Shown: one piece after another, positions 660-29,125 of the stretch
Layout of the letters: each line of letters starts with the position of its first letter
Position numbering within the stretch: position 1 is the stretch's first letter
Virus genome (UHGV): UHGV-0135878
Origin: a virus
Length of the DNA: 39,269 nt
Reading direction: 5' to 3' (one strand)
Position numbers and translations under genes: made by a program
The notes under the pieces: generated by a model
What the model was told of the DNA's origin: nothing
What the model saw: only the letters and a program-made list of their open reading frames with translations
Database searches by the model: none

Positions 660-682
660 CGCTGCCGCCACTTTGTCGCCAT
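660..682. repeat. Candidate attL core (cgctgccgccaCtttgtcgccat)
   Basis: 22/23 identical to 36415-36437; abuts the stop codon of the 682-1437 gene; exact crossover not determinable from sequence alone. Confidence 0.45.
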
Positions 683-1437
683 TAAGAAGGTGATGACTGG
701 TCTTTGATAGCTAGAAGTCCCCATGAGAAAACTTCTTTGGCATCGCTTATTAAACCATCCTCTATAAATTGCTGTGTCTCAGCCCATTCCATATCACTGA
801 CATAGTGTACTAGCGTATTTGTCTGGATTGGGATTTCTTCAAATTGCTCGATTCGACGTTTGAAACTACATTCAGGATCTGAACAACGGCATGTGCGTCT
901 TATATCATCTACCCTACAGAGTAAAAGGGAGTAGGGGGTCTCAAGTGGTGCACAGTAGTCAACCCGATAGTTATGAGATCGTGTTGGCTGGATGTTATGA
1001 AGGGGATCTAAAAGCACAATATTAAAAATTTGGTTCTCATCCCAAAAGCCAACAACTCTACCAAGGGCAGTAGATATCTGAAATTGTAGTAAGGGGTATT
1101 CTTCGTCATTTTCAAGGTAATCAGTGTCAATCCATGTCAACTGGCTACGTTGTACGGGTATATTTCTTTGTTCCCAGTTTATTGAATGATAGCGCCATGC
1201 CTCTCTATCGGCCCCACTGGTAATAAAGCCTTTGACATCTTTTTGAGAAAGCTCAGATAATTTTCCAATTAGTGAAACAAACCAGCCTGAATTGGTACGG
1301 TCTAACCCAAAATTATCAATTTGACGCCAATAACGAAAAGAAAATGCCCACTTTTTTTCGGGTGCAGAGGGCGTTTTTGGGGTCTGTGCCGCTGTTGGTT
1401 GATTTGCCCCTAATGAAGGGCGGTAGGCGTTCACCAT
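682..1437 (-). CDS. Hypothetical 251-aa protein, downstream partner of the Panacea-domain gene (candidate toxin/effector)
   Basis: ATG at 1437 lies 5 nt after the stop of the upstream gene (operon arrangement); AT-rich; no motif recognised; Cys cluster CRCSDPEC; stop codon overlaps attL repeat. Confidence 0.6.
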   Translation of the reverse strand: MVNAYRPSLGANQPTAAQTPKTPSAPEKKWAFSFRYWRQIDNFGLDRTNSGWFVSLIGKLSELSQKDVKGFITSGADREAWRYHSINWEQRNIPVQRSQLTWIDTDYLENDEEYPLLQFQISTALGRVVGFWDENQIFNIVLLDPLHNIQPTRSHNYRVDYCAPLETPYSLLLCRVDDIRRTCRCSDPECSFKRRIEQFEEIPIQTNTLVHYVSDMEWAETQQFIEDGLISDAKEVFSWGLLAIKDQSSPS

Positions 1438-1442
1438 GGCTA

Positions 1443-1910
1443 TTAATTTAATCGGCTACGATAAAAGTCTCTTGTTATGTTGCGATCGATGACTACTTCA
1501 CAACGTGCTGAAGGTCTGTAACCCTCACGAGCCTTAATCCATGGTTCTTCTTTATGAGTCATATCTTCAAGTTGTGCGCCAGAAAAAGCACCGTAGACTT
1601 CAAGAACGCCATCAATATGAGCTGCGGTTGCGGCTGGAATGGATGAAAGATCAAACCCAGGAGTGCGATCTGCAATCGTTATGTCCGAATACAGTGATTT
1701 TGTAGAAGAGAACCGGTTATAAATCGCACGGCTTACTGGGCCATGAATCCAAGCTTGAAACTCCTCATCCACTAACTTTTTATCGAAAAAAGCTAGATAC
1801 CAAGCATCTGCGTAATAAGCTAATTTTTGCAGCTTCAAATTAGACATAGTTTCACCTGAAGCTAAGATTTTTGTGATGATGTAATCACATAATTGGTTAA
1901 TATTTATCAT
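1443..1910 (-). CDS. Panacea (DUF4065) domain protein, SocA/GepA-like putative antitoxin
   Basis: 155 aa; strong RBS GAGGGA before ATG at 1910; KLQKLAYYADAWYL and C-terminal THKEEPW motifs match DUF4065 as remembered. Confidence 0.6.
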   Translation of the reverse strand: MININQLCDYIITKILASGETMSNLKLQKLAYYADAWYLAFFDKKLVDEEFQAWIHGPVSRAIYNRFSSTKSLYSDITIADRTPGFDLSSIPAATAAHIDGVLEVYGAFSGAQLEDMTHKEEPWIKAREGYRPSARCEVVIDRNITRDFYRSRLN

Positions 1911-2075
1911 TATTTATCCCTCTAGGCTTGGTGTCTAAGCAGCCAATCTTATTAAAGATATCGACCGTTAGAAATCTTTGAATACCAAGTTAACTTATAG
2001 TGGCATACATAGCTGAATAAATCGAGATTCAAACGTGCTAAAATGTGATGAATATGGATGAGCAGTGCTTTCATT

Positions 2076-6013: not shown

Positions 6014-6240
6014 TGGCTGATGCAATGGATCTCGTACAGCAGCGCGTTGAAGAAGAACGCCAGCGCCATATCCGTGCTGCCCGTGCCAAAACACCGGGCG
6101 TGTCTCGCGTGCTTTGTATTGAATGTGAAGCGCCAATTCCGCCAGCACGCCGCCGCGCCATTCCTGGAGTGCAGCTTTGCATTACCTGCCAGGAAATCGC
6201 AGAGCTGAAAGGCAAACATTACAACGGAGGTGCTGTATGA
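6013..6240 (+). CDS. TraR/DksA-family C4 zinc-finger protein
   Basis: 75 aa; CxxC...CxxC (CIECEAP...CITCQ) typical of phage TraR-like proteins; start overlaps previous stop. Confidence 0.7.
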   Translation: MADAMDLVQQRVEEERQRHIRAARAKTPGVSRVLCIECEAPIPPARRRAIPGVQLCITCQEIAELKGKHYNGGAV

Positions 6241-7094
6241 GCACCATCCTGAAATGGGCGGGTAATAAAACCGCCATTATGTCCGAACTGAAAAAATACC
6301 TTCCTGCTGGCCCGCGACTGGTTGAACCTTTCGCGGGTTCTTGTGCTGTGATGATGGCGACGGATTACCCCAGCTATCTGGTTGCGGATATTAATCCTGA
6401 TTTAATCAACCTCTATAAAAAGATTGCCGCTGATTGCGAAGCGTTTATATCTCGTGCCAGAGTTTTATTTGAGGAAGCAAACAGTGAGCTGGCTTATTAC
6501 AACATAAGACAGGAGTTTAATTACTCAACTGAAATTACTGATTTCATGAAGGCGATATATTTCCTGTATCTCAATCGTCACGGTTACCGTGGTTTATGTC
6601 GCTATAACAAGAGCGGGCATTTCAACATTCCCTACGGTAATTATAAAAATCCGTATTTCCCTGAAAAAGAAATTCGCGCATTTGCAGAGAAAGCCCCGCG
6701 GGCAACGTTTATCTGCGCCAGCTTTGATGAAACGCTGGCGATGTTGAAGGCGGGGGATGTGGTGTATTGCGATCCGCCGTATGACGGTACGTTTTCCGGC
6801 TATCACACTGATGGTTTCACTGAAGATGACCAGTATCACCTGGCATCCGTTCTTGAACATCGGTCGTCAGAAGGTCATCCGGTCATTGTTTCTAACAGTG
6901 ACACATCCCTGATTCGTTCGCTGTATCGCAATTTCACTCACCACTACATCAAGGCAAAACGCAGCATCGGCGTGTCGGCTGGCGAGAGTAAATCTGCAAC
7001 AGAAATCATTGCTGTTTCCGGGGCGCGCTGCTGGGTGGGATTTGATCCTTCGCGTGGCGTGGATAGTTCTGCTGTGTACGAGGTGCGTGTATGA
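6237..7094 (+). CDS. DNA adenine methyltransferase (Dam family)
   Basis: 285 aa from ATG at 6237; DPPY catalytic motif ([10 protein letters not shown]) and N-terminal FAGSCAV AdoMet motif. Confidence 0.85.
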
Positions 7095-9505
7095 GTCATG
7101 CCGATATGAGCGACTCTAGCGGCTTTAACGAGGCCGCTGCAGCATTTTCATGGAACGGCCCGAAAAAGGCCATAAACCCTTATCTGGACCCGGCGGAAGT
7201 TGCGCCGGTTTCTGCGCTTTCAAACCTGATCACTCTGTATGCTGCCGATAACGAGCAGGAACAGCTGCGCCGCGAGGAATTGAGTGAACAGGTCTGGGAG
7301 CGTTATTTCTTTAATGAATCCCGTGATCCTGTCCAGCGCGAAATGGAGCAGGATAAGCTCATTAGTCGGGCAAAGCTGGCGCATGAGCAGCAGCGTTTTA
7401 ACCCGGACATGGTCATTCTGGCGGACGTCAGCGCCCAGCCCACCCACATCAGCAAGCCGCTGATGCAACGTATCGAATACTTCAGCAGCCTGGGCAGGCC
7501 AAAGGCTTATTCCCGCTATTTGCGTGAGACGATTAAGCCATGTCTGGAGCGACTGGATTGTGTACGCGACAGTCAGCTATCTACTTCTTTCCGTTTTATG
7601 GCAAGCCATCAAGGGCTGGAGGGCCTGCTGATCCTGCCTGAAATGAGTCAGGATCAGGTGAAACGCCTGTCCACCCTGGTAGCTGCGCATATGAGCATGT
7701 GTCTTGAGGCCGCTTGTGGTGATTTGTATACCAACGATGACGTAAAGCCAGAAGAAATCCGCAAGACATGGGAAAAGGTGGCAGCGGAAACCCTGCGTCT
7801 GGATGTTATCCCGCCTGCGTTTGAGAAACTTCGTCGGAAAAGAAACCGCCGCAAACCTGTGCCCTATGAACTCATACCGGGTTCGCTGGCACGTATGCTT
7901 TGCGCCGACTGGTGGTATCGAAAATTGTGGAAGATGCGTTGCGAATGGCGGGAAGAGCAGTTGCGTGCTGTCTGTCTGGTCAGCAAAAAAGCATCTCCCT
8001 ATGTCAGCTATGAAGCCGTGATGCATAAACGTGAGCAGCGCCGCAAGTCGCTGGAGTTTTTCCGTTCTCATGAACTGGTGAACGAAGACGGAGACACGCT
8101 GGATATGGAAGATGTGGTAAACGCCAGCAGCAGCAACCCGGCACATCGCCGCAATGAGATGATGGCCTGCGTTAAAGGTCTGGAGCTTATCGCGGAAATG
8201 CGCGGTGACTGCGCCGTTTTCTACACCATCACATGTCCGTCACGTTTCCATTCCACGCTCAATAACGGCAGGCCCAACCCGACCTGGACAAATGCGACGG
8301 TAAGACAAAGCAGCGATTATCTGGTCGGCATGTTTGCTGCATTTCGTAAGGCGATGCACAAAACCGGGTTGCGCTGGTATGGCGTACGGGTGGCTGAGCC
8401 GCACCATGACGGTACTGTGCACTGGCATCTCATGTGTTTCATGCGCAAAAAAGACCGCCGCGCCATTACTGCATTGTTGCGTAAGTTTGCCATCCGTGAA
8501 GACCGCGAGGAGCTGGGCAATAACACGGGCCCACGCTTTAAGTCTGAGCTGATAAACCCACGCAAAGGAACGCCGACAAGCTACATCGCAAAATACATCA
8601 GTAAGAACATTGACGGGCGTGGTCTGGCTGGCGAGATCAGCAAGGAAACGGGTAAATCCCTGCGTGATAACGCCGAATACGTTAATGCCTGGGCGTCTCT
8701 GCATCGTGTTCAGCAGTTCCGCTTCTTTGGTATTCCGGGGCGCCAGGCTTACCGTGAACTGCGATTGCTGGCTGGTCAGGCGGCAAGACAACAGGGTGAC
8801 AAAAAAGCAGGTGCGCCGGTACTGGATGATCCGCGTCTTGATGCCATCCTGGCTGCTGCTGATGCTGGTTGTTTTGCCACCTACATCATGAAGCAGGGCG
8901 GCGTACTGGTTCCCCGCAAATATCACCTTATCAGAACAGCTTATGAAATTAACGAAGAGCCGACTGCCTATGGCGATCACGGTATTCGTATTTATGGCAT
9001 CTGGTCACCCATTTCAGAGGGCAAGATCTGCACTCATGCAGTGAAGTGGAAAATGGTTCGTAAGGCCGTTGACGTTCAGGAGGCGGTAGCCGACCAGGGC
9101 GCTTGCGCCCCTTGGACTCGTGGCAATAACTGTCCCCTTGCTGAAAATTTGTACCAACAAGGGAAAGACAAATCAGCTGATGGGGGCTCCAGAACGGACA
9201 TTACCCGCATGGATGACAAGGAATTGCACGATTACCTGCACAGTATGAGCAAAAAAGATCGCCGGGAGCTGGCAGCAAGGTTGCGCTTGGTGAAACCGAA
9301 ACGGCGTAAAGACTACAAACAGCGAATTACAGATCATCAGCATCAGCAGCTCGTCTATGAACTGAAGTCCAGAGGATTTGATGGCAGCGAGAAAGAAGTC
9401 GATTTGCTCCTTCGCGGTGGCAGTATTCCGTCAGGAGCAGGCTTGCGTATCTTCTATCGGAACCAGCGTTTGCGGGAAGATGATAAGTGGCGGAACCTGT
9501 ATTAA
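7091..9505 (+). CDS. A: Replication initiation endonuclease (P2 gpA family, rolling-circle HUH nuclease)
   Basis: 804 aa; HUH-type motif (TVHWHLMCF) and tyrosine motif (YIAKYISK); position after early genes. Confidence 0.85.
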
Positions 9506-9599
9506 TTACGCGGGTTAACAATTCGTGCTCTTAATAATACCAGGCATATCAGGCTGATGAACGTAAAAAAACGTTTTACATCAGTAAGATTATTATATA

Positions 9600-9615
9600 C
9601 TGTAAATATAAACAG
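9600..9615 (+). promoter_or_regulatory. LexA (SOS) box CTGTAAATATAAACAG
   Basis: With flanks taCTGTAAATATAAACAGtg, 17/20 match to the CTGT-N8-ACAG consensus; overlaps a likely -10 about 45 nt upstream of the 9659 start codon. Confidence 0.6.
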
Positions 9616-9658
9616 TGGTTATGTATACAGCATTTCTTGTGGTGTCATAGGAGGAAAG

Positions 9659-9847
9659 ATGCAGGACTATTTTTTGGAGTCTTTGAAGCTCCAGCGCATT
9701 GATTTTTTTCTTAAGCTTGTAGCGGCTAGTGAGTGTAGTGATGAAGAGAAGGGGCTGGCTTTGCAGTGGGTTTCTGAACTAACAGATGAACTCATGGCAA
9801 AAATCAGAACCCACGAATACAACCGCTCAATGGATGTCATCAGTTGA
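9659..9847 (+). CDS. Small SOS-controlled protein (62 aa), possible N-terminal part of a Tum-like antirepressor
   Basis: ATG at 9659 with strong RBS AGGAGGA just downstream of the LexA box; track start 9557 reads through the operator. Confidence 0.45.
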   Translation: MQDYFLESLKLQRIDFFLKLVAASECSDEEKGLALQWVSELTDELMAKIRTHEYNRSMDVIS

Positions 9848-9857
9848 GGTGACTTTT

Positions 9858-10091
9858 ATGCGCATTGAAATAATGATCGATAAAGAGCAGAAGATTAGCC
9901 AGTCTATCCTGGACGCCCTTGAATCCGAGCTTTACCGCAATCTGCGCCCCCTGTATCCCAAAACGGTAATTCGTATCCGCAAAGGTAGCTCTAACGGTGT
10001 GGAACTGACCGGACTGCAACTGGACGAAGAAAGAAAACAAGTGATGAAAATTATGCAGAAGGTGTGGGAAGACGACAGCTGGCTGCATTAA
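9858..10091 (+). CDS. DinI-family protein
   Basis: 77 aa, MRIEIMIDKE...DALESEL...WEDDSWLH resembles DinI; RBS GAGGTGA; ATG at 9858. Confidence 0.7.
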   Translation: MRIEIMIDKEQKISQSILDALESELYRNLRPLYPKTVIRIRKGSSNGVELTGLQLDEERKQVMKIMQKVWEDDSWLH

Positions 10092-10093
10092 GA

Positions 10094-10136
10094 AACGTTG
10101 CTGGCGTCTGAACTTGCTTCTGACGTCAGCAACGTT
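10094..10136. terminator. Stem-loop between convergent genes (15-bp stem with one G-T pair, 13-nt loop)
   Basis: aacgttgctggcgtc ... gacgtcagcaacgtt immediately after the DinI-like stop; no clean T-run, so terminator function is inferred. Confidence 0.4.
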
Positions 10137-10357
10137 GAACAACTAGTTTAGTGGGGCATTAGTCATGGGGTAAAATACAGTAACCATTATTTTCACTTCC
10201 GCTCAGATTTAACCGAACGTTAGTTTTGCTACGTATGATGGGCTGCAAATTACCTTTTGGGATTTGTGATAGATACGAAAATCCTATTAGATGCTTGTTA
10301 GACCGGAAGCGCCACTTCGAACGAAAAGTAATGGCCACTTATGCCGGTTTAAAAGCC

Positions 10358-10888
10358 TTAACCTTGTATAGTTATTTGAATATTTTCTTCATTGACACCA
10401 AAGTATAGGGCTAGCCCTGCTTTTGCCTCCTGAAGTGTTAACGGCTTAACTACATTTTCTTCTTCTTCTTCGTACTCATCACCCGCTTGATCGACAATCG
10501 AATTAGTCGGGGTTAATTTTGGAAGAGCTTTAAATTCCAACTTGTCAGCCTCAATGCCAATGTCTTTGAGGTTGCGATAAGAAACGGGATTCCGATTGCC
10601 ATCCCATTGTCCTGGGATGTCAATTTCAGCATAAGAATTGATGTTTATGATCCAGCGTTTAGGGTTTTCTGGAGCCCTGCTTACTCCCGAGATTCGACCG
10701 ATCATAAAAGCATGATGATGTTTTGCTTCTTGTGATCCCCAGTCCTTTCTCGAATTTTGTACACAAACTAAATATTCGTGCTTAGCTGCATGGCTGGCGT
10801 CAAGTCTCCATGCTTGGCTTCCCCCTGTGTTCAAAATCTCTGTTAAACCACGAGCAGTAAGTACAGTAATACAGTTGGTAGTAGCCAT
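10358..10888 (-). CDS. Hypothetical 176-aa protein at the P2 old/tin position (accessory gene)
   Basis: ATG at 10888; transcribed opposite to the early operon, just left of the cos-like site; acidic EYEEEEE stretch; no motif recognised. Confidence 0.6.
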   Translation of the reverse strand: MATTNCITVLTARGLTEILNTGGSQAWRLDASHAAKHEYLVCVQNSRKDWGSQEAKHHHAFMIGRISGVSRAPENPKRWIININSYAEIDIPGQWDGNRNPVSYRNLKDIGIEADKLEFKALPKLTPTNSIVDQAGDEYEEEEENVVKPLTLQEAKAGLALYFGVNEENIQITIQG

Positions 10889-11205
10889 TGAATTGTGACT
10901 CCGTCTTTTTTAGAGAAATACTATTGATGAATGTAGTTTACGTATTTTTTTATTGAGTAGTCAAGTTAGTATTCTGCTCGTTATTGGCTGTTTTTTGAGT
11001 GTTGTGAGTTAGTACTTTGTGTAGTACCTCTTGGTTTATGAGGGTTAAATCTAAGTTATGACAAAGGGAGGCAGGGGGAACGCGCAGCGCAAGGTGTACA
11101 GGAGGCCATAAGGACTCACTTGAAGTAAGAAAAGATCGATAAAGCAACAATGCATGTCTATGCCGCATGAATTCGCATGATCGTTTGAGGATCGTTTTAG
11201 CTGAG

Positions 11206-11233
11206 GCCCGCTAGGAATGGCGGGCTTTTGTTT
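11206..11233 (+). terminator. Rho-independent-terminator-like hairpin (gcccgc-8nt-gcgggc then TTTTGTTT)
   Basis: 6-bp GC stem and T-run on the + strand about 45 nt before the cos-like motif; no upstream + strand ORF. Confidence 0.35.
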
Positions 11234-11274
11234 ATGTCATGCAAGTGCATGAAAACCACTACATAAAGCGGGCA

Positions 11275-11293
11275 GGCGTGGCGGGGATACGAG
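11275..11293. other. Candidate cos (cohesive end) site, ggcgtggcggggatacgag
   Basis: First 13 nt match the GGCG(A/T)GGCGGGGA cohesive-end motif I remember for P2/186; lies in a GC-rich island within AT-rich DNA between the old/tin position and Q. Confidence 0.45.
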
Positions 11294-11658
11294 CGCGCGC
11301 ACCTTCTAATAATTACAAAGTCATTGAGATATGCAGGGGATATTCTATATTTCATTTAATCGATATACCCAACCGAGCTACTAGATTGATTGTGCAAAGT
11401 TAATCAACTAACTATTAGGTGAAAATATATTCCCAATAGTTATCATTCAGATTTATTTAATTCCTCGTTCGTATCATTTTTTATTTACCAATAAGCTGTG
11501 TGATTTTTATGTTAAATTAACGGCAATAGCATAATATGTTGTGAAAATGTGATGAGATCTACTTGATATTATTTTTATAATGGTGTTAATTGTTAGTCAG
11601 CTAAACGGTGTTACATTTTATTTTCAACGAAATTAAGTTTTTGTCATGGAGAGGCTTT

Positions 11659-12480
11659 ATGAAGGTTAGTTTTGATGTTGTTATTAAAAGTGGTGCTTAT
11701 GATGTTGATATGGATTACGCGCTTAAAACATTAGCTGGTACATCGAATGTAGTTTGCCTTTTGGCAGAAGCGATACTTCGTGGAAGAATTATTGAACGGC
11801 GTACCCATGCAAATGATATCAGAGCAAAGCTTAAACACAGTTTTCCGGGTTCTTATGGTCAAAAATTTGACATCGAGATAAATGACTCGACACTGATTTC
11901 TCGTTTGAATTCTATGGGACGTAGTGTTTTCTCTGAAGTAATGAGTTACTATATTTGTGAAGCGCTATATGTTGAGCATAATGGTTTGACAGATGCAGCA
12001 CAGAAAATCATTGATAGTTTAGTTGCAATAGAGGATGAGCTTACAAAGCGAATTCGTTCCCCACTAAAAGATATGCATAAAGTCACTACAATGAATGGTT
12101 ATAATGTTGAGTTATCTTATCGAAAACCTGGATCACCAGAAAACATTATAACGTTGACACCAGAAACTGAGATTAATATTTCAGATACTGAAATACTACA
12201 GGTTTCCCATGATATATCTGTAATCATAACTCGTTTTAATTCAATGACAGGAAATGGTCGACTTATACTTGAAGGGTATGAAGAACATGGCACTGTAGCA
12301 TTTGGATTTTATGATAATTTAAGATATGTAACAGAAAACCATAAAAGACAAATCACTCAAAACTTGCATCACAATAATGGCCTTCCATCAGATAGATGGC
12401 AATATATGAATTTAACTGTAAGTGATATGGTTCTTCCTAGTGGGGATGTTATTAAATATCTAATTCGTAATATACCTTGA
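11659..12480 (+). CDS. Hypothetical 273-aa soluble protein, first gene of accessory operon
   Basis: ATG at 11659 with RBS GGAGAGG (track start 11608 is upstream in-frame); strongly AT-rich; no motif recognised. Confidence 0.65.
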   Translation: MKVSFDVVIKSGAYDVDMDYALKTLAGTSNVVCLLAEAILRGRIIERRTHANDIRAKLKHSFPGSYGQKFDIEINDSTLISRLNSMGRSVFSEVMSYYICEALYVEHNGLTDAAQKIIDSLVAIEDELTKRIRSPLKDMHKVTTMNGYNVELSYRKPGSPENIITLTPETEINISDTEILQVSHDISVIITRFNSMTGNGRLILEGYEEHGTVAFGFYDNLRYVTENHKRQITQNLHHNNGLPSDRWQYMNLTVSDMVLPSGDVIKYLIRNIP

Positions 12481-12490
12481 TAGAGTTATT

Positions 12491-13186
12491 ATGAAAATTC
12501 ACTCTATTAAAATCTTTGCTGCATTAGTAATTATAATTACGTGGTTGAGTTATTTTGCAAAGTTTGGTGATTGGTTTAACTTCTCGAGTGATACGGCTGT
12601 TTGGGGGCAGTTTGGGGATTTTTTAGGAGGGGTGATTAATCCACTGCTTACATTTATATCTGTTGTTTACTTGATTAACTCTGTAAATCTTCAGCGAGAG
12701 GCGAACGCTAGCCTGATTGCGCTTGAAGAGTTTAAGAAAACTGAGACCAAATTTTATAACATGCTTGAGTCACAACGAAGTGGCTTCGAAAGCTTTAAAA
12801 TTGTAGATAGTGTGGATGGGAAACCTTTAGTTATCAAGGACGGTGACGCGGTTACATATATTGAGGATGTTGTTGTAGAAATGGTAATCCAAGGAAGTAC
12901 AAAAGGAGAAATCTCAAATAAAATAGGTGGAATGGATAAAGCGGATAATATATTTAGTATAGTGAGGCGCTTTCATAATATTATTAAGTTGATTAAAAGG
13001 GAAATTCCGGAAAACTTAAGAAGTGAATATTATGATAGTTTAGTTAATATGACTGAGTATAAGCAAATATGTCTTATATTAATATCAATGGAGCTTTTTG
13101 ATTGGCCTATTTTAAGTAGCATTGATGAAAGTGGTGTGTTTAATATTGAGGCATTAATGGAATATAGAAAAGCATTTAGACCATAA
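12491..13186 (+). CDS. Hypothetical 231-aa membrane protein (two N-terminal TM helices plus ~170-aa soluble domain)
   Basis: ATG 10 nt after upstream stop; hydrophobic segments at about residues 7-26 and 41-62; AT-rich. Confidence 0.65.
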   Translation: MKIHSIKIFAALVIIITWLSYFAKFGDWFNFSSDTAVWGQFGDFLGGVINPLLTFISVVYLINSVNLQREANASLIALEEFKKTETKFYNMLESQRSGFESFKIVDSVDGKPLVIKDGDAVTYIEDVVVEMVIQGSTKGEISNKIGGMDKADNIFSIVRRFHNIIKLIKREIPENLRSEYYDSLVNMTEYKQICLILISMELFDWPILSSIDESGVFNIEALMEYRKAFRP

Positions 13187-14259: not shown

Positions 14260-16025
14260 CAAAAAATCTCCACAATATTGCTGGTATTGGCGGATTCGCC
14301 CTGCAGCGGTTCGTTAAACAGTGCGTGCATTGTTGCCCAGGCCAGATCGGCGTGGCTGGCTTCTTCGCTGCGGCTGGCTTCATAGGTCGGGCGGTTGCCG
14401 CTGGCGGTGGTTGCGCGACGGATTGCCATGAATGACTGCGCAATGTCGGTGTGTCCGGCGTCAAACTCCAGACGGCGGTGGCTGATAATGTCGTAGGCCT
14501 TGAGTACCAGGGCGTTTTTAACGTTGGGATTGTAGACAAACTCCCTGACGGCAGGAAAAAACGCTTTCACGTTCTCGTAAACCCCGTGACCGACGCCGGT
14601 CGAGTCGATGCCGATATAGGTCACGTTATACTGTTCGGTCAGTTTTTTGATGGCGTCAGCCTGGGCGCGGAAGTCCATCCCGCGCCACTGGTGACGCTCA
14701 AGAATGCGGAACTTACCGCCCGGCACGGCTGGCGGTGCCACCACCACGCATCCGGCGCTGTCGCCGTTCTGTGTACCTTTTGCCGGGTCATAACCGATCC
14801 AAACCTCGCGCCAGCCAAACGGGCGCAGCGCCAGTGCATGAAAGTCGGTCCAGACTTCCCAACTGTCCACCATGCACGCCTGCAGCTCGCTGAGCGGGAA
14901 CACGGACGCGAGATCGTCCACGAACTCACACATCAGCAGGTTCTGGTATTCGTCCGGGCTGTACTCCATGCGCAACTGGTCGAGATCGAACAGGTTACAG
15001 CCGCCGCGCACCGCATCTTCCACGGTGACTATCTGGCGGTATTGCCCGTCTGCGCACAGCAGGCCGGGGGCCAGATTGTTGTGGGACAGGTCGATGTCCA
15101 CCTTATCGGCTTTGTTGCGCCCACGATTGAACAGCGCACCGGACCAGAACGGATAAGCACTGTGGGTCAGGCTGGATGGCGTGGAAAAATAGGTTTGTCG
15201 CCATTTTTTGTGAATAGCCATACCGGAAGCCACTTTGCGCAGCTCCTGAAATTTCGGTATCCAGAAATATTCATCCAGATACAGGTTGCCGTGATAACTC
15301 TGGGCCGTGCGGGCATTGGTGCCGAGGAAGTAAAGCGTGGCACCGTTAGGAAGCACCATCGGATCACCTTTCAGCTCCACCTCCACTTCTTTGGCGAAGT
15401 CGATGATGTACTGCTTAAAGACGTAGGCCTGTGCCTTGCTGGCGGAAAGGAAAATCTGGTTACGTCCGGTCAGCAGGGCGTCAATCAGGGCTTCACGGGC
15501 AAAATAGAAGGTTGCGCCGATCTGGCGTGACTTCAGCAGGTTGCGGATGCGGTTGGTTTTTCCGGCTTCCCACCAGTGGCGCTGGTAGTTGAACATGGAG
15601 GAATGGAAAATTTCTTCCAGCTTCTCAATCTGTTCATCGGTGAAAACGTTCTTTTCCGGCTGACGGCGTGGGCCTTTGTTGCGGTTGGCGACGTTAGGGT
15701 TTAAGTCGGATTCGTTGCCGCCATTGTTAAACTTGCCGATCCGCGCGTGGCGTTCCGACTGGCGCGCCAGCAGGTCAATCTCTTTGAAATCTTTCCCTTC
15801 TTTGTGCTCCTTCATAATGAGCTGGCAGTAGCGTGCGGCGGTGGTGAGCTGCATCTGATCCAGCGGCCCATAGTCACCCCACTTGTCGCGTTTTTTCCAG
15901 CTGTGAACGGTTGCAACTTTCTCGCCCAGCATTTCAGCAATGCGGGCTACGCGGTATCCCTGAAAGTACAGCAGCATGGCCTGCCGACGGGGATCGAGAT
16001 CTGCGGGTGTCAGTGTGGTGTTCAT
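14259..16025 (-). CDS. P: Terminase large subunit (P2 gpP family)
   Basis: 588 aa, ATG at 16025; divergent from capsid operon as in P2. Confidence 0.9.
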   Translation of the reverse strand: MNTTLTPADLDPRRQAMLLYFQGYRVARIAEMLGEKVATVHSWKKRDKWGDYGPLDQMQLTTAARYCQLIMKEHKEGKDFKEIDLLARQSERHARIGKFNNGGNESDLNPNVANRNKGPRRQPEKNVFTDEQIEKLEEIFHSSMFNYQRHWWEAGKTNRIRNLLKSRQIGATFYFAREALIDALLTGRNQIFLSASKAQAYVFKQYIIDFAKEVEVELKGDPMVLPNGATLYFLGTNARTAQSYHGNLYLDEYFWIPKFQELRKVASGMAIHKKWRQTYFSTPSSLTHSAYPFWSGALFNRGRNKADKVDIDLSHNNLAPGLLCADGQYRQIVTVEDAVRGGCNLFDLDQLRMEYSPDEYQNLLMCEFVDDLASVFPLSELQACMVDSWEVWTDFHALALRPFGWREVWIGYDPAKGTQNGDSAGCVVVAPPAVPGGKFRILERHQWRGMDFRAQADAIKKLTEQYNVTYIGIDSTGVGHGVYENVKAFFPAVREFVYNPNVKNALVLKAYDIISHRRLEFDAGHTDIAQSFMAIRRATTASGNRPTYEASRSEEASHADLAWATMHALFNEPLQGESANTSNIVEIF

Positions 16026-21975: not shown

Positions 21976-22047
21976 TATGTCTTGTTTTTTGTGGGTTTTT
22001 ATAACATCATATTGGCTCTGTTATAAATAGTATGGAGAGTTTGATTG

Positions 22048-23253
22048 ATGAAAAAAAATAACGATATCAATAAACAAGTAAAATCAGAAACAGAAAATAA
22101 TTCATCTGCAAATATGAATGGAAGTGGCTCGGATGAAATCCTTTCTAAGAGCACCTCTGGTACGGTGGTATGGGGAGATAACAGTTTTGGAAGTATTTCT
22201 AAATATATTAATGAGGTACTCGGTAAGAATTTATATTTAGATATAATTAAATCTCTTGATGCTAAGTTGAAAGCACCAGTTCAAGCTAATAGAACTACTA
22301 TATTAAAGAACCTGAAGGGTAATTTCAAAGAGGAAAATCTTGTGCTTGTATTAGGCGCTGGAATTTCTTTGGATTATAAAATACCTACATGGGATGAATT
22401 ATTAAGGAGGTTGCTTGCTAGAGCGTTACAAGATACTAATGAAAATCAGCAAGTTGTTGCGACATTATTTAATCAGGTGTTCGGGCCAAATGCTTTGATT
22501 GCGGCTAGATATTTAAAGTTACATTTTGAAAGTGCTAACACTCCTCTTGAGAAAGAAATTCAGAAAGTGTTATATCAATTTTATGATAGCACCGAGAGTC
22601 AAACGCTTAAGGCGATAAAGAAATTATGTATTTCTGCGGGGAAGGCTCCGGGGTTAGATTCTGTCATAACATATAATTATGACGACATACTAGAGCAAAC
22701 ATTACAAAACGCAGATGTTGGTATTAAATTTAAGGTTATATATAAAACTGGGCAGCATGCAAAAAAAGATGAGTTGCCAATATATCATGTTCATGGATAT
22801 CTTCCCTTAAATGGTAAGATTGATAGTGATGACAGCCTAGTTTTATCGGATGAAAGTTATCATCGGCAATATATGGATTTATATCACTGGAGTAATATGG
22901 TTCAGTTGAATAAATTCAAAGACAATAATTGTTTGTTTATAGGACATTCCTTTACTGATCCAAATTTAAGACGTCTGCTTGATGCTGCTAAAAAGTTAAG
23001 GGGTAATGATTCTAAACCTCATTACTTAATAAAATGTCGACACTCAAAAGATGATGTTATAAATAAAATTCTAAAAGGTTCACGTCAAGATTTGAATGAC
23101 GGGCTAGTCGACGATATAGACAATGTTGCCCGTTCTTTATTAGATACTGTACATAAATTTGAAGAAATTGATGCTAACTCTTTTGGTGTTAATGTTATAT
23201 GGATTGATAATTTTACTGAAATAGGCCCCATAGTAACTGATTTAACTCAATAA
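22048..23253 (+). CDS. SIR2-like (ThsA-type) NAD-binding domain protein, standalone, 401 aa
   Basis: ATG at 22048 with RBS GGAGAG; SIR2 motifs VLVLGAGISLDYKIPTWDELL, ITYNYDD, IYHVHGY, CLFIGHSFTDPNL; very AT-rich; inserted between S and V. Confidence 0.75.
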   Translation: MKKNNDINKQVKSETENNSSANMNGSGSDEILSKSTSGTVVWGDNSFGSISKYINEVLGKNLYLDIIKSLDAKLKAPVQANRTTILKNLKGNFKEENLVLVLGAGISLDYKIPTWDELLRRLLARALQDTNENQQVVATLFNQVFGPNALIAARYLKLHFESANTPLEKEIQKVLYQFYDSTESQTLKAIKKLCISAGKAPGLDSVITYNYDDILEQTLQNADVGIKFKVIYKTGQHAKKDELPIYHVHGYLPLNGKIDSDDSLVLSDESYHRQYMDLYHWSNMVQLNKFKDNNCLFIGHSFTDPNLRRLLDAAKKLRGNDSKPHYLIKCRHSKDDVINKILKGSRQDLNDGLVDDIDNVARSLLDTVHKFEEIDANSFGVNVIWIDNFTEIGPIVTDLTQ

Positions 23254-28503: not shown

Positions 28504-28558
28504 TGCAGAGATAATGGCTAACTGGCATCATCCCCGGTTTTTATTCAGGGGGATGCTC

Positions 28559-29125
28559 ATGCTTATTGGCTATGTACGCGTGTCAACAAATGACCAGAAC
28601 ACCGATTTGCAACGTAATGCACTGAACTGCGCGGGATGTGAGCGGATTTTTGAGGATAAAATCAGTGGCACTAAGTCCGACAGACCAGGGTTGAAAAAAC
28701 TGCTCAGGACACTATCGGCAGGAGACACGCTGGTTGTCTGGAAGCTGGACAGGTTGGGGCGCAGTATGCGGCATCTTGTTACGCTGATAGAAGAGTTGCG
28801 TCAGCGAGGCGTGAATTTCCGAAGCCTGACTGACAGTATTGATACCAGCACCCCAATGGGCCGTTTCTTTTTTCATGTCATGGGTGCCCTGGCTGAAATG
28901 GAACGCGAACTGATAGTTGAACGTACCAGGGCAGGGCTGGCTGCAGCTCGTGCCAAAGGCAGAGTAGGTGGACGCCGTCCTAAGTTGACCACCGAACAGT
29001 GGGCACAGATTGGGCGTTTACTCGAGGCCGGAGAATCAAGACAGCGTATTGCACTGATTTTTGATGTGGGCGTTTCTACCATTTATAGAAAATTTCCGGC
29101 GAATGAGAACAATGAATCGCCCTGA
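28559..29125 (+). CDS. Serine DNA invertase (Gin/Hin/Pin/Cin family)
   Basis: 189 aa from ATG at 28559; N-terminus MLIGYVRVSTNDQ with catalytic Ser, C-terminal HTH. Confidence 0.9.
   Translation: MLIGYVRVSTNDQNTDLQRNALNCAGCERIFEDKISGTKSDRPGLKKLLRTLSAGDTLVVWKLDRLGRSMRHLVTLIEELRQRGVNFRSLTDSIDTSTPMGRFFFHVMGALAEMERELIVERTRAGLAAARAKGRVGGRRPKLTTEQWAQIGRLLEAGESRQRIALIFDVGVSTIYRKFPANENNESP

Follow-up and report, generated by a model that had tools for sequence, protein, structure and literature searches.

UHGV-0135878 is a virus genome of 39,269 nucleotides, which was analysed as a whole and is called the window here; it is a 186/P2-type prophage of the Escherichia coli chromosome, with an integrase and a CI-type repressor. 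Our subject is a gene on its minus strand at 10,358–10,888, which begins with ATG and encodes a protein of 176 residues. The open reading frame (ORF) is opposed to the early operon, as described in a preliminary reading made from the letters alone (the sequence-only reading). It is annotated in RefSeq, and its product is identical to WP_000246368.1, which is labelled 'hypothetical protein' in E. coli prophages and belongs to family phrog_37247. Leading up to it are gene A (7,091–9,505), a small ORF and a DinI-like gene ending at 10,091, and portal gene Q begins at 14,262 on the far side of cos, which places the gene between dinI and cos. The cohesive-end sequence itself, GGCGTGGCGGGGATACGAG (11,275–11,293, plus strand), was located by its match to P2 cosR, GGCGAGGCGGGGAAAGCAC, and the sequence preceding it; it falls within a conserved block (11,151–11,301) and lies 386 bp from the ATG of the 176-residue gene.

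In the P2 record, the interval between A and cos is filled by tin and old, which are transcribed leftward as one mRNA starting about 150 bp from cosR, and the analogy of position and orientation drawn in the sequence-only reading is therefore sound. Like old and tin, the gene occupies the A–cos slot, points leftward from its own promoter near cos, is low in G+C (GC) content and is accessory. The likeness does not extend to the products, however: P2 Old is an ATPase-nuclease of 586 residues and Tin a protein of 253, both with known phenotypes, and BLASTP of the 176-residue protein gave E = 0.3 over 22 residues against Old and, at best, E = 1.6 over 11 residues against Tin, with no ATPase or Toprim match in Pfam. 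Nor did homology searches reveal a conserved P2 morphogenesis or replication protein, the first of the two results that the sequence-only reading had named as telling against it.

To delimit the insert that carries the gene, we used an E. coli prophage with an empty slot, where about 24 bp separate the dinI terminator hairpin from the cos-proximal block. The insert thus spans about 10,147–11,150 and comprises the gene, its promoter and 3' non-coding DNA, which are present or absent as a unit. When 10,100–11,600 was searched by megablast in 5,426 complete E. coli genomes, 1,271 of them contained the 150-bp block at 11,151–11,301, but only about eight of these had the gene-bearing 1.2 kb (98.5–99.9% identity). 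The GC content is 0.41 in the insert, 0.42 in the ORF and 0.38 at 10,889–11,150, compared with 0.53–0.54 in the backbone at gene A and Q–P. Of the roughly 380 bp of AT-rich, promoter-like upstream DNA described earlier, the length, the low GC content and the presence of a promoter were all borne out, but only 10,889–11,150 travels with the gene, and 11,151–11,301 is conserved P2-type backbone. The gene is accessory cargo of the lysogenic-conversion type, a discrete insert with its own promoter.

Downstream, the roughly 215 nt at 10,143–10,357 carry no coding annotation in RefSeq, again as anticipated; a 59-residue ORF at 10,159–10,338 was treated as spurious because it is missing in relatives with a shorter 3' region. 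Between the convergent dinI and 176-residue genes lies a hairpin (10,095–10,136; predicted RNA folding energy −23.1 kcal/mol, z = −4.0); on the minus strand, UUUCUUAAU comes directly after it. The hairpin also occurs in the prophage with the empty slot, belongs to the backbone and probably serves as a terminator for both directions. A second ORF treated as spurious, of 72 residues at 10,950–11,168, overlaps the promoter and operator region and is not annotated in RefSeq; its recurrence in the loci examined is limited to prophages with a 176-residue gene of 99–100% identity. An Rfam scan of 9,500–11,700 returned no RNA family.

Family size and carriers

The protein had been described as an orphan, a label that its large family contradicts. 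A word-indexed search retrieved 74 clusters of relatives, and an exhaustive profile search retrieved 1,007 representatives at 50% identity (E ≤ 1e-3), including 303 with E ≤ 1e-30. Among the 343 members examined, the median length was 173 residues and nearly all stood alone. Hosts include Gamma-, Beta- and Alphaproteobacteria, Myxococcota, Chloroflexi, Planctomycetes, Nitrospirae, Acidobacteria and Actinobacteria, and this conservation across phyla indicates a real gene. We give practically no weight to the idea of a chance ORF or a decaying remnant without function: its sole support is the lack of any annotation, and against it stand the 1,007 family clusters, conservation over the full length across phyla, a confident structure model, and promoter and Shine-Dalgarno spacing that are conserved.

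Annotation is indeed absent throughout. No model in Pfam, NCBIfam or PADLOC matched the 176-residue protein, PADLOC-DB 2.0 yielded no family even at E ≤ 1, and the sole match in PHROGs was phrog_37247, a family without assigned function. A literature search found no paper naming WP_000246368 or phrog_37247 or reporting a phenotype, and WP_000246368 was not found in the searched part of the supplement of Rousset et al.

Annotated record collections place the family on 188 plasmids, of which 159 are typed as mobilizable, and contain just 2 phage records that carry it; most of the plasmids listed are 4.4–9 kb long. They include ColRNAI plasmids of Enterobacter, Salmonella, Klebsiella, Citrobacter and E. 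coli, as well as the pRAY*-type aadB plasmids of Acinetobacter, on which the family gene follows mobA. In one of the latter, pABLAC2, an ORF without annotation at 1,532–2,017 (minus strand), just 3' of mobA, is a family member with 48% identity. Plasmids pRAY* and pD36-1 have been reported to lack an identifiable Rep protein, and the pRAY*-type plasmids of strain D36 to be present at roughly 11–13 copies per cell. A role as replication initiator, which repeats and plasmids with no Rep might suggest, was rejected because the gene also resides on ColRNAI plasmids and P2-type prophages, which replicate by systems of their own. A pRAY* derivative of 2.8 kb, which may or may not retain this ORF, is still able to replicate.

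Among IMG/VR contigs, P2-like sequences hold the gene in the dinI–cos slot at 85–100% identity, two contigs (73–79% identity) hold it just past the tail genes, and further phage contigs carry it next to terminase. Taken together, the family is large, uncharacterised and carried singly by prophages and, more often, by small mobilizable plasmids. A subfamily of about 30% identity and 183 residues is found on many ColE1-type plasmids of 4.4–5.9 kb from E. coli and Salmonella, on small ColE1-type plasmids of Enterobacter and on one phage contig, and one member of 224 residues (P0110) consists of two tandem copies of the N-terminal domain without the tail described below. Two family genes with similar flanks lie about 12 kb apart on a 20-kb contig binned as the archaeon Candidatus Nitrosotalea sp. 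TS (L027, L029), an arrangement that may reflect a repeated element or the mis-binning of bacterial DNA.

We predicted ORFs for 67 related loci and grouped every neighbour lying no more than 4 kb away, which revealed no neighbour cluster in more than five loci apart from the P2 core genes of P2-like loci. A Pfam scan of 150 immediate neighbours returned a background of terminase, portal, MobA/MobL, TraD, ParA, Rep, integrase and resolvase. The gene is thus a solo traveller without a conserved partner. In one enterobacterial ColE1-type lineage (L074 at 615–2,290; L004, L054), a Sel1/TPR-repeat gene starts 4 bp after the family gene and is followed by a gene for a 153-residue protein, an arrangement that may be a lineage-specific operon.

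Predicted fold, tail and fusions

An AlphaFold2 model built with the family alignment had a mean predicted local distance difference test (pLDDT) score of 84, with values mostly of 86–97 in the N-terminal domain and about 89 in the tail; the alignment divides the protein into three parts. Residues 1–125 (10,514–10,888, minus strand) are modelled with a PUA-like fold of the EVE/YTH/ASCH type, the mark of which is a pseudo-barrel built from five or six mixed strands and inserted helices; according to the model, then, the protein does contain a recognisable domain, where the sequence-only reading had seen no motif. Among the best fold matches were the reader domains of VcaM4I and PD-T4-3 and the McrB N-domain, together with ASCH proteins, and a fold search of BFVD returned only unnamed phage proteins with borderline scores. 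Across 148 diverse members, T11, G23, W27, N45, F61, R78, A87, W95, R99, P101 and Y104 were conserved in at least 90% and H57 in 89%; W27, F61, W95 and Y104, the aromatic residues considered for a cage that could hold a flipped, modified base, reached at least 96%, alongside N45, R78 and R99.

The predicted fold is shared with the EVE (PH1033, THYN1), YTH (YTHDC1, Mmi1) and ASCH (TRIP4, ZmASCH) proteins, but unlike them the 176-residue protein has a conserved tail of its own and matches no Pfam profile. The EVE, YTH and ASCH profiles of Pfam failed to match either the protein or 49 aligned members, even at E ≤ 10, and a family-profile search of PDB sequences returned nothing, as did the same search for two long fusions. 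The family is, by sequence profile, an unannotated branch outside EVE, YTH and ASCH that the model places among PUA-like proteins.

Residues 126–148 (10,445–10,513, minus strand) form a disordered linker that varies in length and sequence, with gap-rich alignment columns and pLDDT values below 50 across residues 126–144. The conspicuous acidic run noted earlier is real (DEYEEEEE, residues 137–144) but unconserved, and the model and alignment identify it as part of the flexible linker and not as a functional motif. Residues 149–176 (10,361–10,444, minus strand) form a helix-plus-strand tail conserved in the alignment as LTIxEAKxGLAxxFGVxPxAIEITIRG. A profile of the last 31 residues matched designed repeat proteins and showed weak similarity to helix-strand units of the Jag_N type; no DNA-binding family was matched by it. 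We infer that the tail is an oligomerisation or interaction module because the three fusion partners that replace it in relatives all oligomerise.

These tail-replacing fusions to known domains occurred in 3 of the 343 members. In P0202, found on a single metagenomic contig of 1.9 kb, the N-terminal domain precedes a DUF3427-HNH body from a large family of 'putative restriction endonucleases' with varying N-terminal modules. P0208 joins the domain, without the tail, to AbiTii and lies beside an Abi_2-like gene, and P0221 joins it to a MazE/AbrB domain, with a PemK/MazF gene overlapping the stop codon. Each of the three partners either acts as an effector in conflicts or regulates one. The pattern agrees with the PUA/DUF3427-nuclease enzymes of Lutz et al. 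(PMC6765204) and with the usual placement of EVE-type readers in type IV restriction and toxin–antitoxin contexts (Bell et al., PMC7641849).

The 176-residue protein itself belongs to neither class. Its N-terminal domain is structurally similar in the model to the sensing domains of type IV restriction enzymes (the EVE-HNH enzyme VcaM4I, PD-T4-3 with GIY-YIG plus reader, and McrB), and P0202 has this domain ahead of its nuclease body just as reader-nuclease enzymes do, but the protein has no nuclease domain, and there was no conserved nuclease neighbour in the 67 loci. Similarly, relatives carry the domain on a MazE antitoxin or on AbiTii, and repression of its own promoter through repeats, as proposed below, would be antitoxin-like, but no toxin gene or effector partner was found with it in the window or in the 67 related loci.

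Repeats at the promoter

A consensus scan placed a sigma-70-type promoter at 10,935–10,964 on the minus strand, with a −35 element TTGACT (10,964–10,959), an 18-nt spacer and a −10 element TAAACT (10,940–10,935), followed by the Shine-Dalgarno sequence GGAG (10,902–10,899, minus strand); transcription is predicted to start near 10,928. When diverged upstream regions of the family were aligned, the TTG of the −35 element and the A/T positions of the −10 element were fixed relative to the ATG. Around this promoter, a motif scan revealed an operator-like cluster of AGTA[C/T] (10,918–11,027, minus strand), with copies reading GTACT (11,027–11,023), AGTACT (11,016–11,011), ATACT (10,972–10,968, abutting the −35 element) and AGTAT (10,922–10,918, just after the −10 element). 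These four copies constitute the densest cluster in the 39 kb, with 5 overlapping matches in 150 bp where 0.33 would be expected, and no second cluster marks a regulated target within the window.

A corresponding motif emerged from the family, whose upstream regions showed short repeats on inspection. An unbiased test of all k-mers, comparing 49 dereplicated family upstream regions with 280 other upstream regions from the same loci, ranked AAGTAT/ATACTT as the top 6-mer (7.9-fold enriched). Counted on either strand, AAGTA[T/C] was present in 28 of 48 family upstream regions versus 33 of 280 controls (Mann–Whitney p = 3e-15; p = 3e-7 against AT-matched controls), for a total of 42 copies compared with 10.6 ± 3.2 in shuffled sequences. 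Copies mostly lie 70–105 nt ahead of the start codon, have the consensus cATACTTTT, and often abut or bracket a TTGACA −35 element, sometimes as dyads such as ATACTTgTTGACAaAGTAT. Neighbouring copies are spaced 10–12, 20–24, 30–33 and 43–44 bp apart, with peaks near 11, 22 and 33, and 32 of 46 adjacent pairs deviate from a multiple of the helical repeat by no more than 2 bp (p = 0.002). Of four complete plasmids, three had their densest cluster just upstream of the family gene (6–7 sites versus about 0.6 expected), and four copies occupy the 110-bp gap after mobA in pABLAC2.

The motif is not known to resemble the boxes of LexA, IHF or Fur. It is present in loci from Chloroflexi, Acidobacteria, Nitrospirae and Actinobacteria, including two gATACTT copies 22 bp apart on a GC-rich Rhodococcus plasmid, and we rejected a shared host factor as its cause because it recurs in such unrelated phyla. 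It also accompanies the N-terminal domain where the tail is missing: the promoter of the AbiTii fusion P0208 reads TTGACA-cga-AAGTAT-N11-ATACTT, with the dyad in the spacer where the −10 element would lie. Upstream of the MazE fusion P0221 is a different AT-rich repeat, which is presumably the MazE operator. The subfamily of about 30% identity likewise lacks the AAGTAT motif and has two or three copies of TATCGNATA upstream instead, 30–33 bp apart (L085, 1,413–1,453; L086, 1,416–1,455; L069, about 6,900–6,975); in the retrieved parts of plasmids L085 and L086, TATCGNATA was found nowhere else.

Phased repeats therefore overlap the gene's own promoter and co-vary with the protein. Because the motif tracks a gene without partners and changes with the protein, it suggests self-regulation, and the balance tips slightly towards a protein that binds the repeats at its own promoter and represses its own gene. 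Its putative target would be a short repeat in duplex promoter DNA, unlike the targets of modified-base readers.

Possible functions and other cargo

The explanation we favour, to which as a complete chain we assign a probability of roughly 35%, is a self-regulated nucleic-acid-binding cargo factor that provides superinfection exclusion or defence. The protein would form an oligomer through its C-terminal tail, and its PUA-like N-terminal domain would bind the phased repeats and repress the promoter; in trans, the same binding would target the nucleic acid of rival or incoming elements and block it by occupancy, not by catalysis. The outcome would be superinfection exclusion or defence, as with old and tin at the P2 slot, and in rare relatives the same domain would be wired to HNH nuclease, AbiTii or MazE–MazF effectors. 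We prefer this explanation because the slot and the wider A–Q region of P2 are documented defence hotspots (PMC9122126; PMC13586616), because other slots of this prophage encode a SIR2 protein and a pair with a Panacea domain, and because the N-terminal domain is the part reused in nuclease, Abi and toxin–antitoxin fusions. A role in conflict is plausible, and in the structure model the fold is shared with type IV restriction and other defence readers. More tentatively still, and somewhat doubtfully, the family as a whole might be a PUA-fold lineage turned sequence-specific binder of phased AAGTA[T/C] in duplex DNA, a portable sensing or targeting module that acts alone in exclusion or shielding without an effector, both on prophages and on small plasmids common in the clinic (pRAY*-type aadB and ColE1-type plasmids), and is occasionally joined to HNH, AbiTii or MazEF.

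Several observations weigh against the favoured explanation. The 176-residue protein has no effector domain in a Pfam scan and no PADLOC match, and a short-motif binder without an effector would have no evident means of blocking a phage. The missing effector domain calls for caution, as does the predominance of the family on small plasmids, which at about 11–13 copies per cell (pRAY*-type, D36) also fits maintenance or establishment. The fusions are very rare (3/343), that with HNH being a singleton contig, and no AAGTAT-type motif was found upstream of P0202 (HNH) or P0221 (MazE). Finally, the motif is missing from about 40% of family upstream regions, and part of its signal might reflect promoter architecture, for instance TATACT-like −10 elements or UP-element-like T-tracts.

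The sequence-only reading had proposed exclusion, defence or anti-defence from position alone; the gene remains a candidate for such roles, but neither its position nor the present evidence separates defence, anti-defence and element maintenance. Under an anti-defence role, which we regard as unlikely, a stand-alone reader would occupy, and so shield, the modified or specific sites targeted by reader-nucleases of the host (type IV restriction and the like), or it would soak up a nucleotide-derived alarm signal; in both cases the phage or plasmid entering the cell would be protected. This would suit a small, effector-less protein that is carried alone on establishing elements (phages and 159 mobilizable plasmids), whose gene adjoins mob genes on several plasmids and whose fold is like that of the VcaM4I, PD-T4-3 and McrB readers. 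The phage also encodes a D12-class (Dam-type) N6-adenine methyltransferase in its early operon (6,177–7,094, plus strand), so that its DNA is probably adenine-methylated. In addition, a preprint reports a PUA module that senses m6-dAMP as an immune sensor, which makes a matching m6-dAMP sponge conceivable. However, known anti-defence genes are rare in P2-like elements, with only Anti_RM and Anti_CRISPR detected, in 28 of 1,511 elements (PMC13586616); moreover, the promoter appears constitutive and self-repressed rather than entry-specific, the operator evidence favours sequence-specific over modification-specific binding, and plasmids of 5–6 kb have few restriction targets.

Maintenance or housekeeping without a conflict role, either as a single-protein, centromere-binding stabiliser or as a regulator of host or element genes, seems to us similarly unlikely. 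Par of pSK1, a helix-turn-helix and coiled-coil protein that raises segregational stability, typifies single-protein partition, and a solo gene with phased repeats upstream has the same layout. Also like pSK1 Par, the family is mostly plasmid-borne (188 plasmid versus 2 phage records), and the motif cluster is essentially limited to the gene's own upstream region. The comparison fails in the fold, which differs from that of Par, and in the fusions, which go to nuclease, Abi and toxin–antitoxin modules. Integrated P2-like prophages of different genera moreover retain the gene at this slot (73–100% identity), where partition is useless; the carrier plasmids are multicopy (ColE1-type or pRAY*-type), and the window has no second motif cluster that could be a regulated target. 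An enzyme is less probable again: an ASCH-like domain that hydrolyses or cleaves a modified nucleoside or RNA, like YqfB and the Zymomonas ASCH protein, would account for the ASCH proteins among the best fold matches and for the conservation of the polar residues T11, S/T24, H57, N45 and Y104.

Were self-regulated binding leading to exclusion or defence to prove correct, a 'hypothetical protein' on about 1,000 sequence clusters would gain a name and a testable mechanism. These clusters include sequences from pRAY*, a widespread Acinetobacter plasmid that confers gentamicin/tobramycin resistance, and from numerous small plasmids of enterobacteria. The known readers would be joined by a PUA-like branch that recognises DNA sequence, beyond base modification alone, and by another sensor module shuffled among nuclease, Abi and toxin–antitoxin effectors. 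A reader-fold gene in a P2 hotspot will not surprise a specialist; it is the size of the family, the clinical plasmids and the conserved candidate operator that merit follow-up, and the whole functional unit is 1 kb including its native promoter, which makes it cheaply testable.

Beyond the slot between A and cos, where the sequence-only reading saw a single gene, a second slot, between cos and Q, holds two more genes. These (11,608–13,186, plus strand; GC content about 0.28–0.40) encode proteins of 290 residues (phrog_13337) and 231 residues (phrog_8999), the latter with a hydrophobic N-terminus; neither matched Pfam, NCBIfam or PADLOC, and the pair is a candidate two-gene defence system. Across prophages (including L001, L002 and L039–L047), the same 176-residue gene is paired with varied cos–Q cargo, such as an Old-like ATP-dependent nuclease, a hypothetical protein with a HIRAN-domain protein, the 290- and 231-residue pair, and others. 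The two sides of cos therefore assort independently; for P2 biology, this means that cos divides the A–Q hotspot into two slots, one of which can house a gene shared with plasmids.

Further cargo lies elsewhere in the prophage. Between the chromosome junction and the integrase (682–1,910, minus strand), a 251-residue protein is encoded together with a 155-residue SocA/Panacea protein (PF13274, E = 2e-19), a pair that looks like a Panacea-type toxin–antitoxin system and has no PADLOC match. In the tail-gene region, a 402-residue protein with a SIR2_2 domain (22,045–23,253, plus strand; best PADLOC matches LmuA at 8e-22 and ThsA at 1e-19) is probably the product of a defence gene in a known tail-gene hotspot of P2-like phages. 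The same region encodes a recombinase of the resolvase/invertase family (28,514–29,125, plus strand; Resolvase and HTH_7 domains), which may be a DNA invertase.

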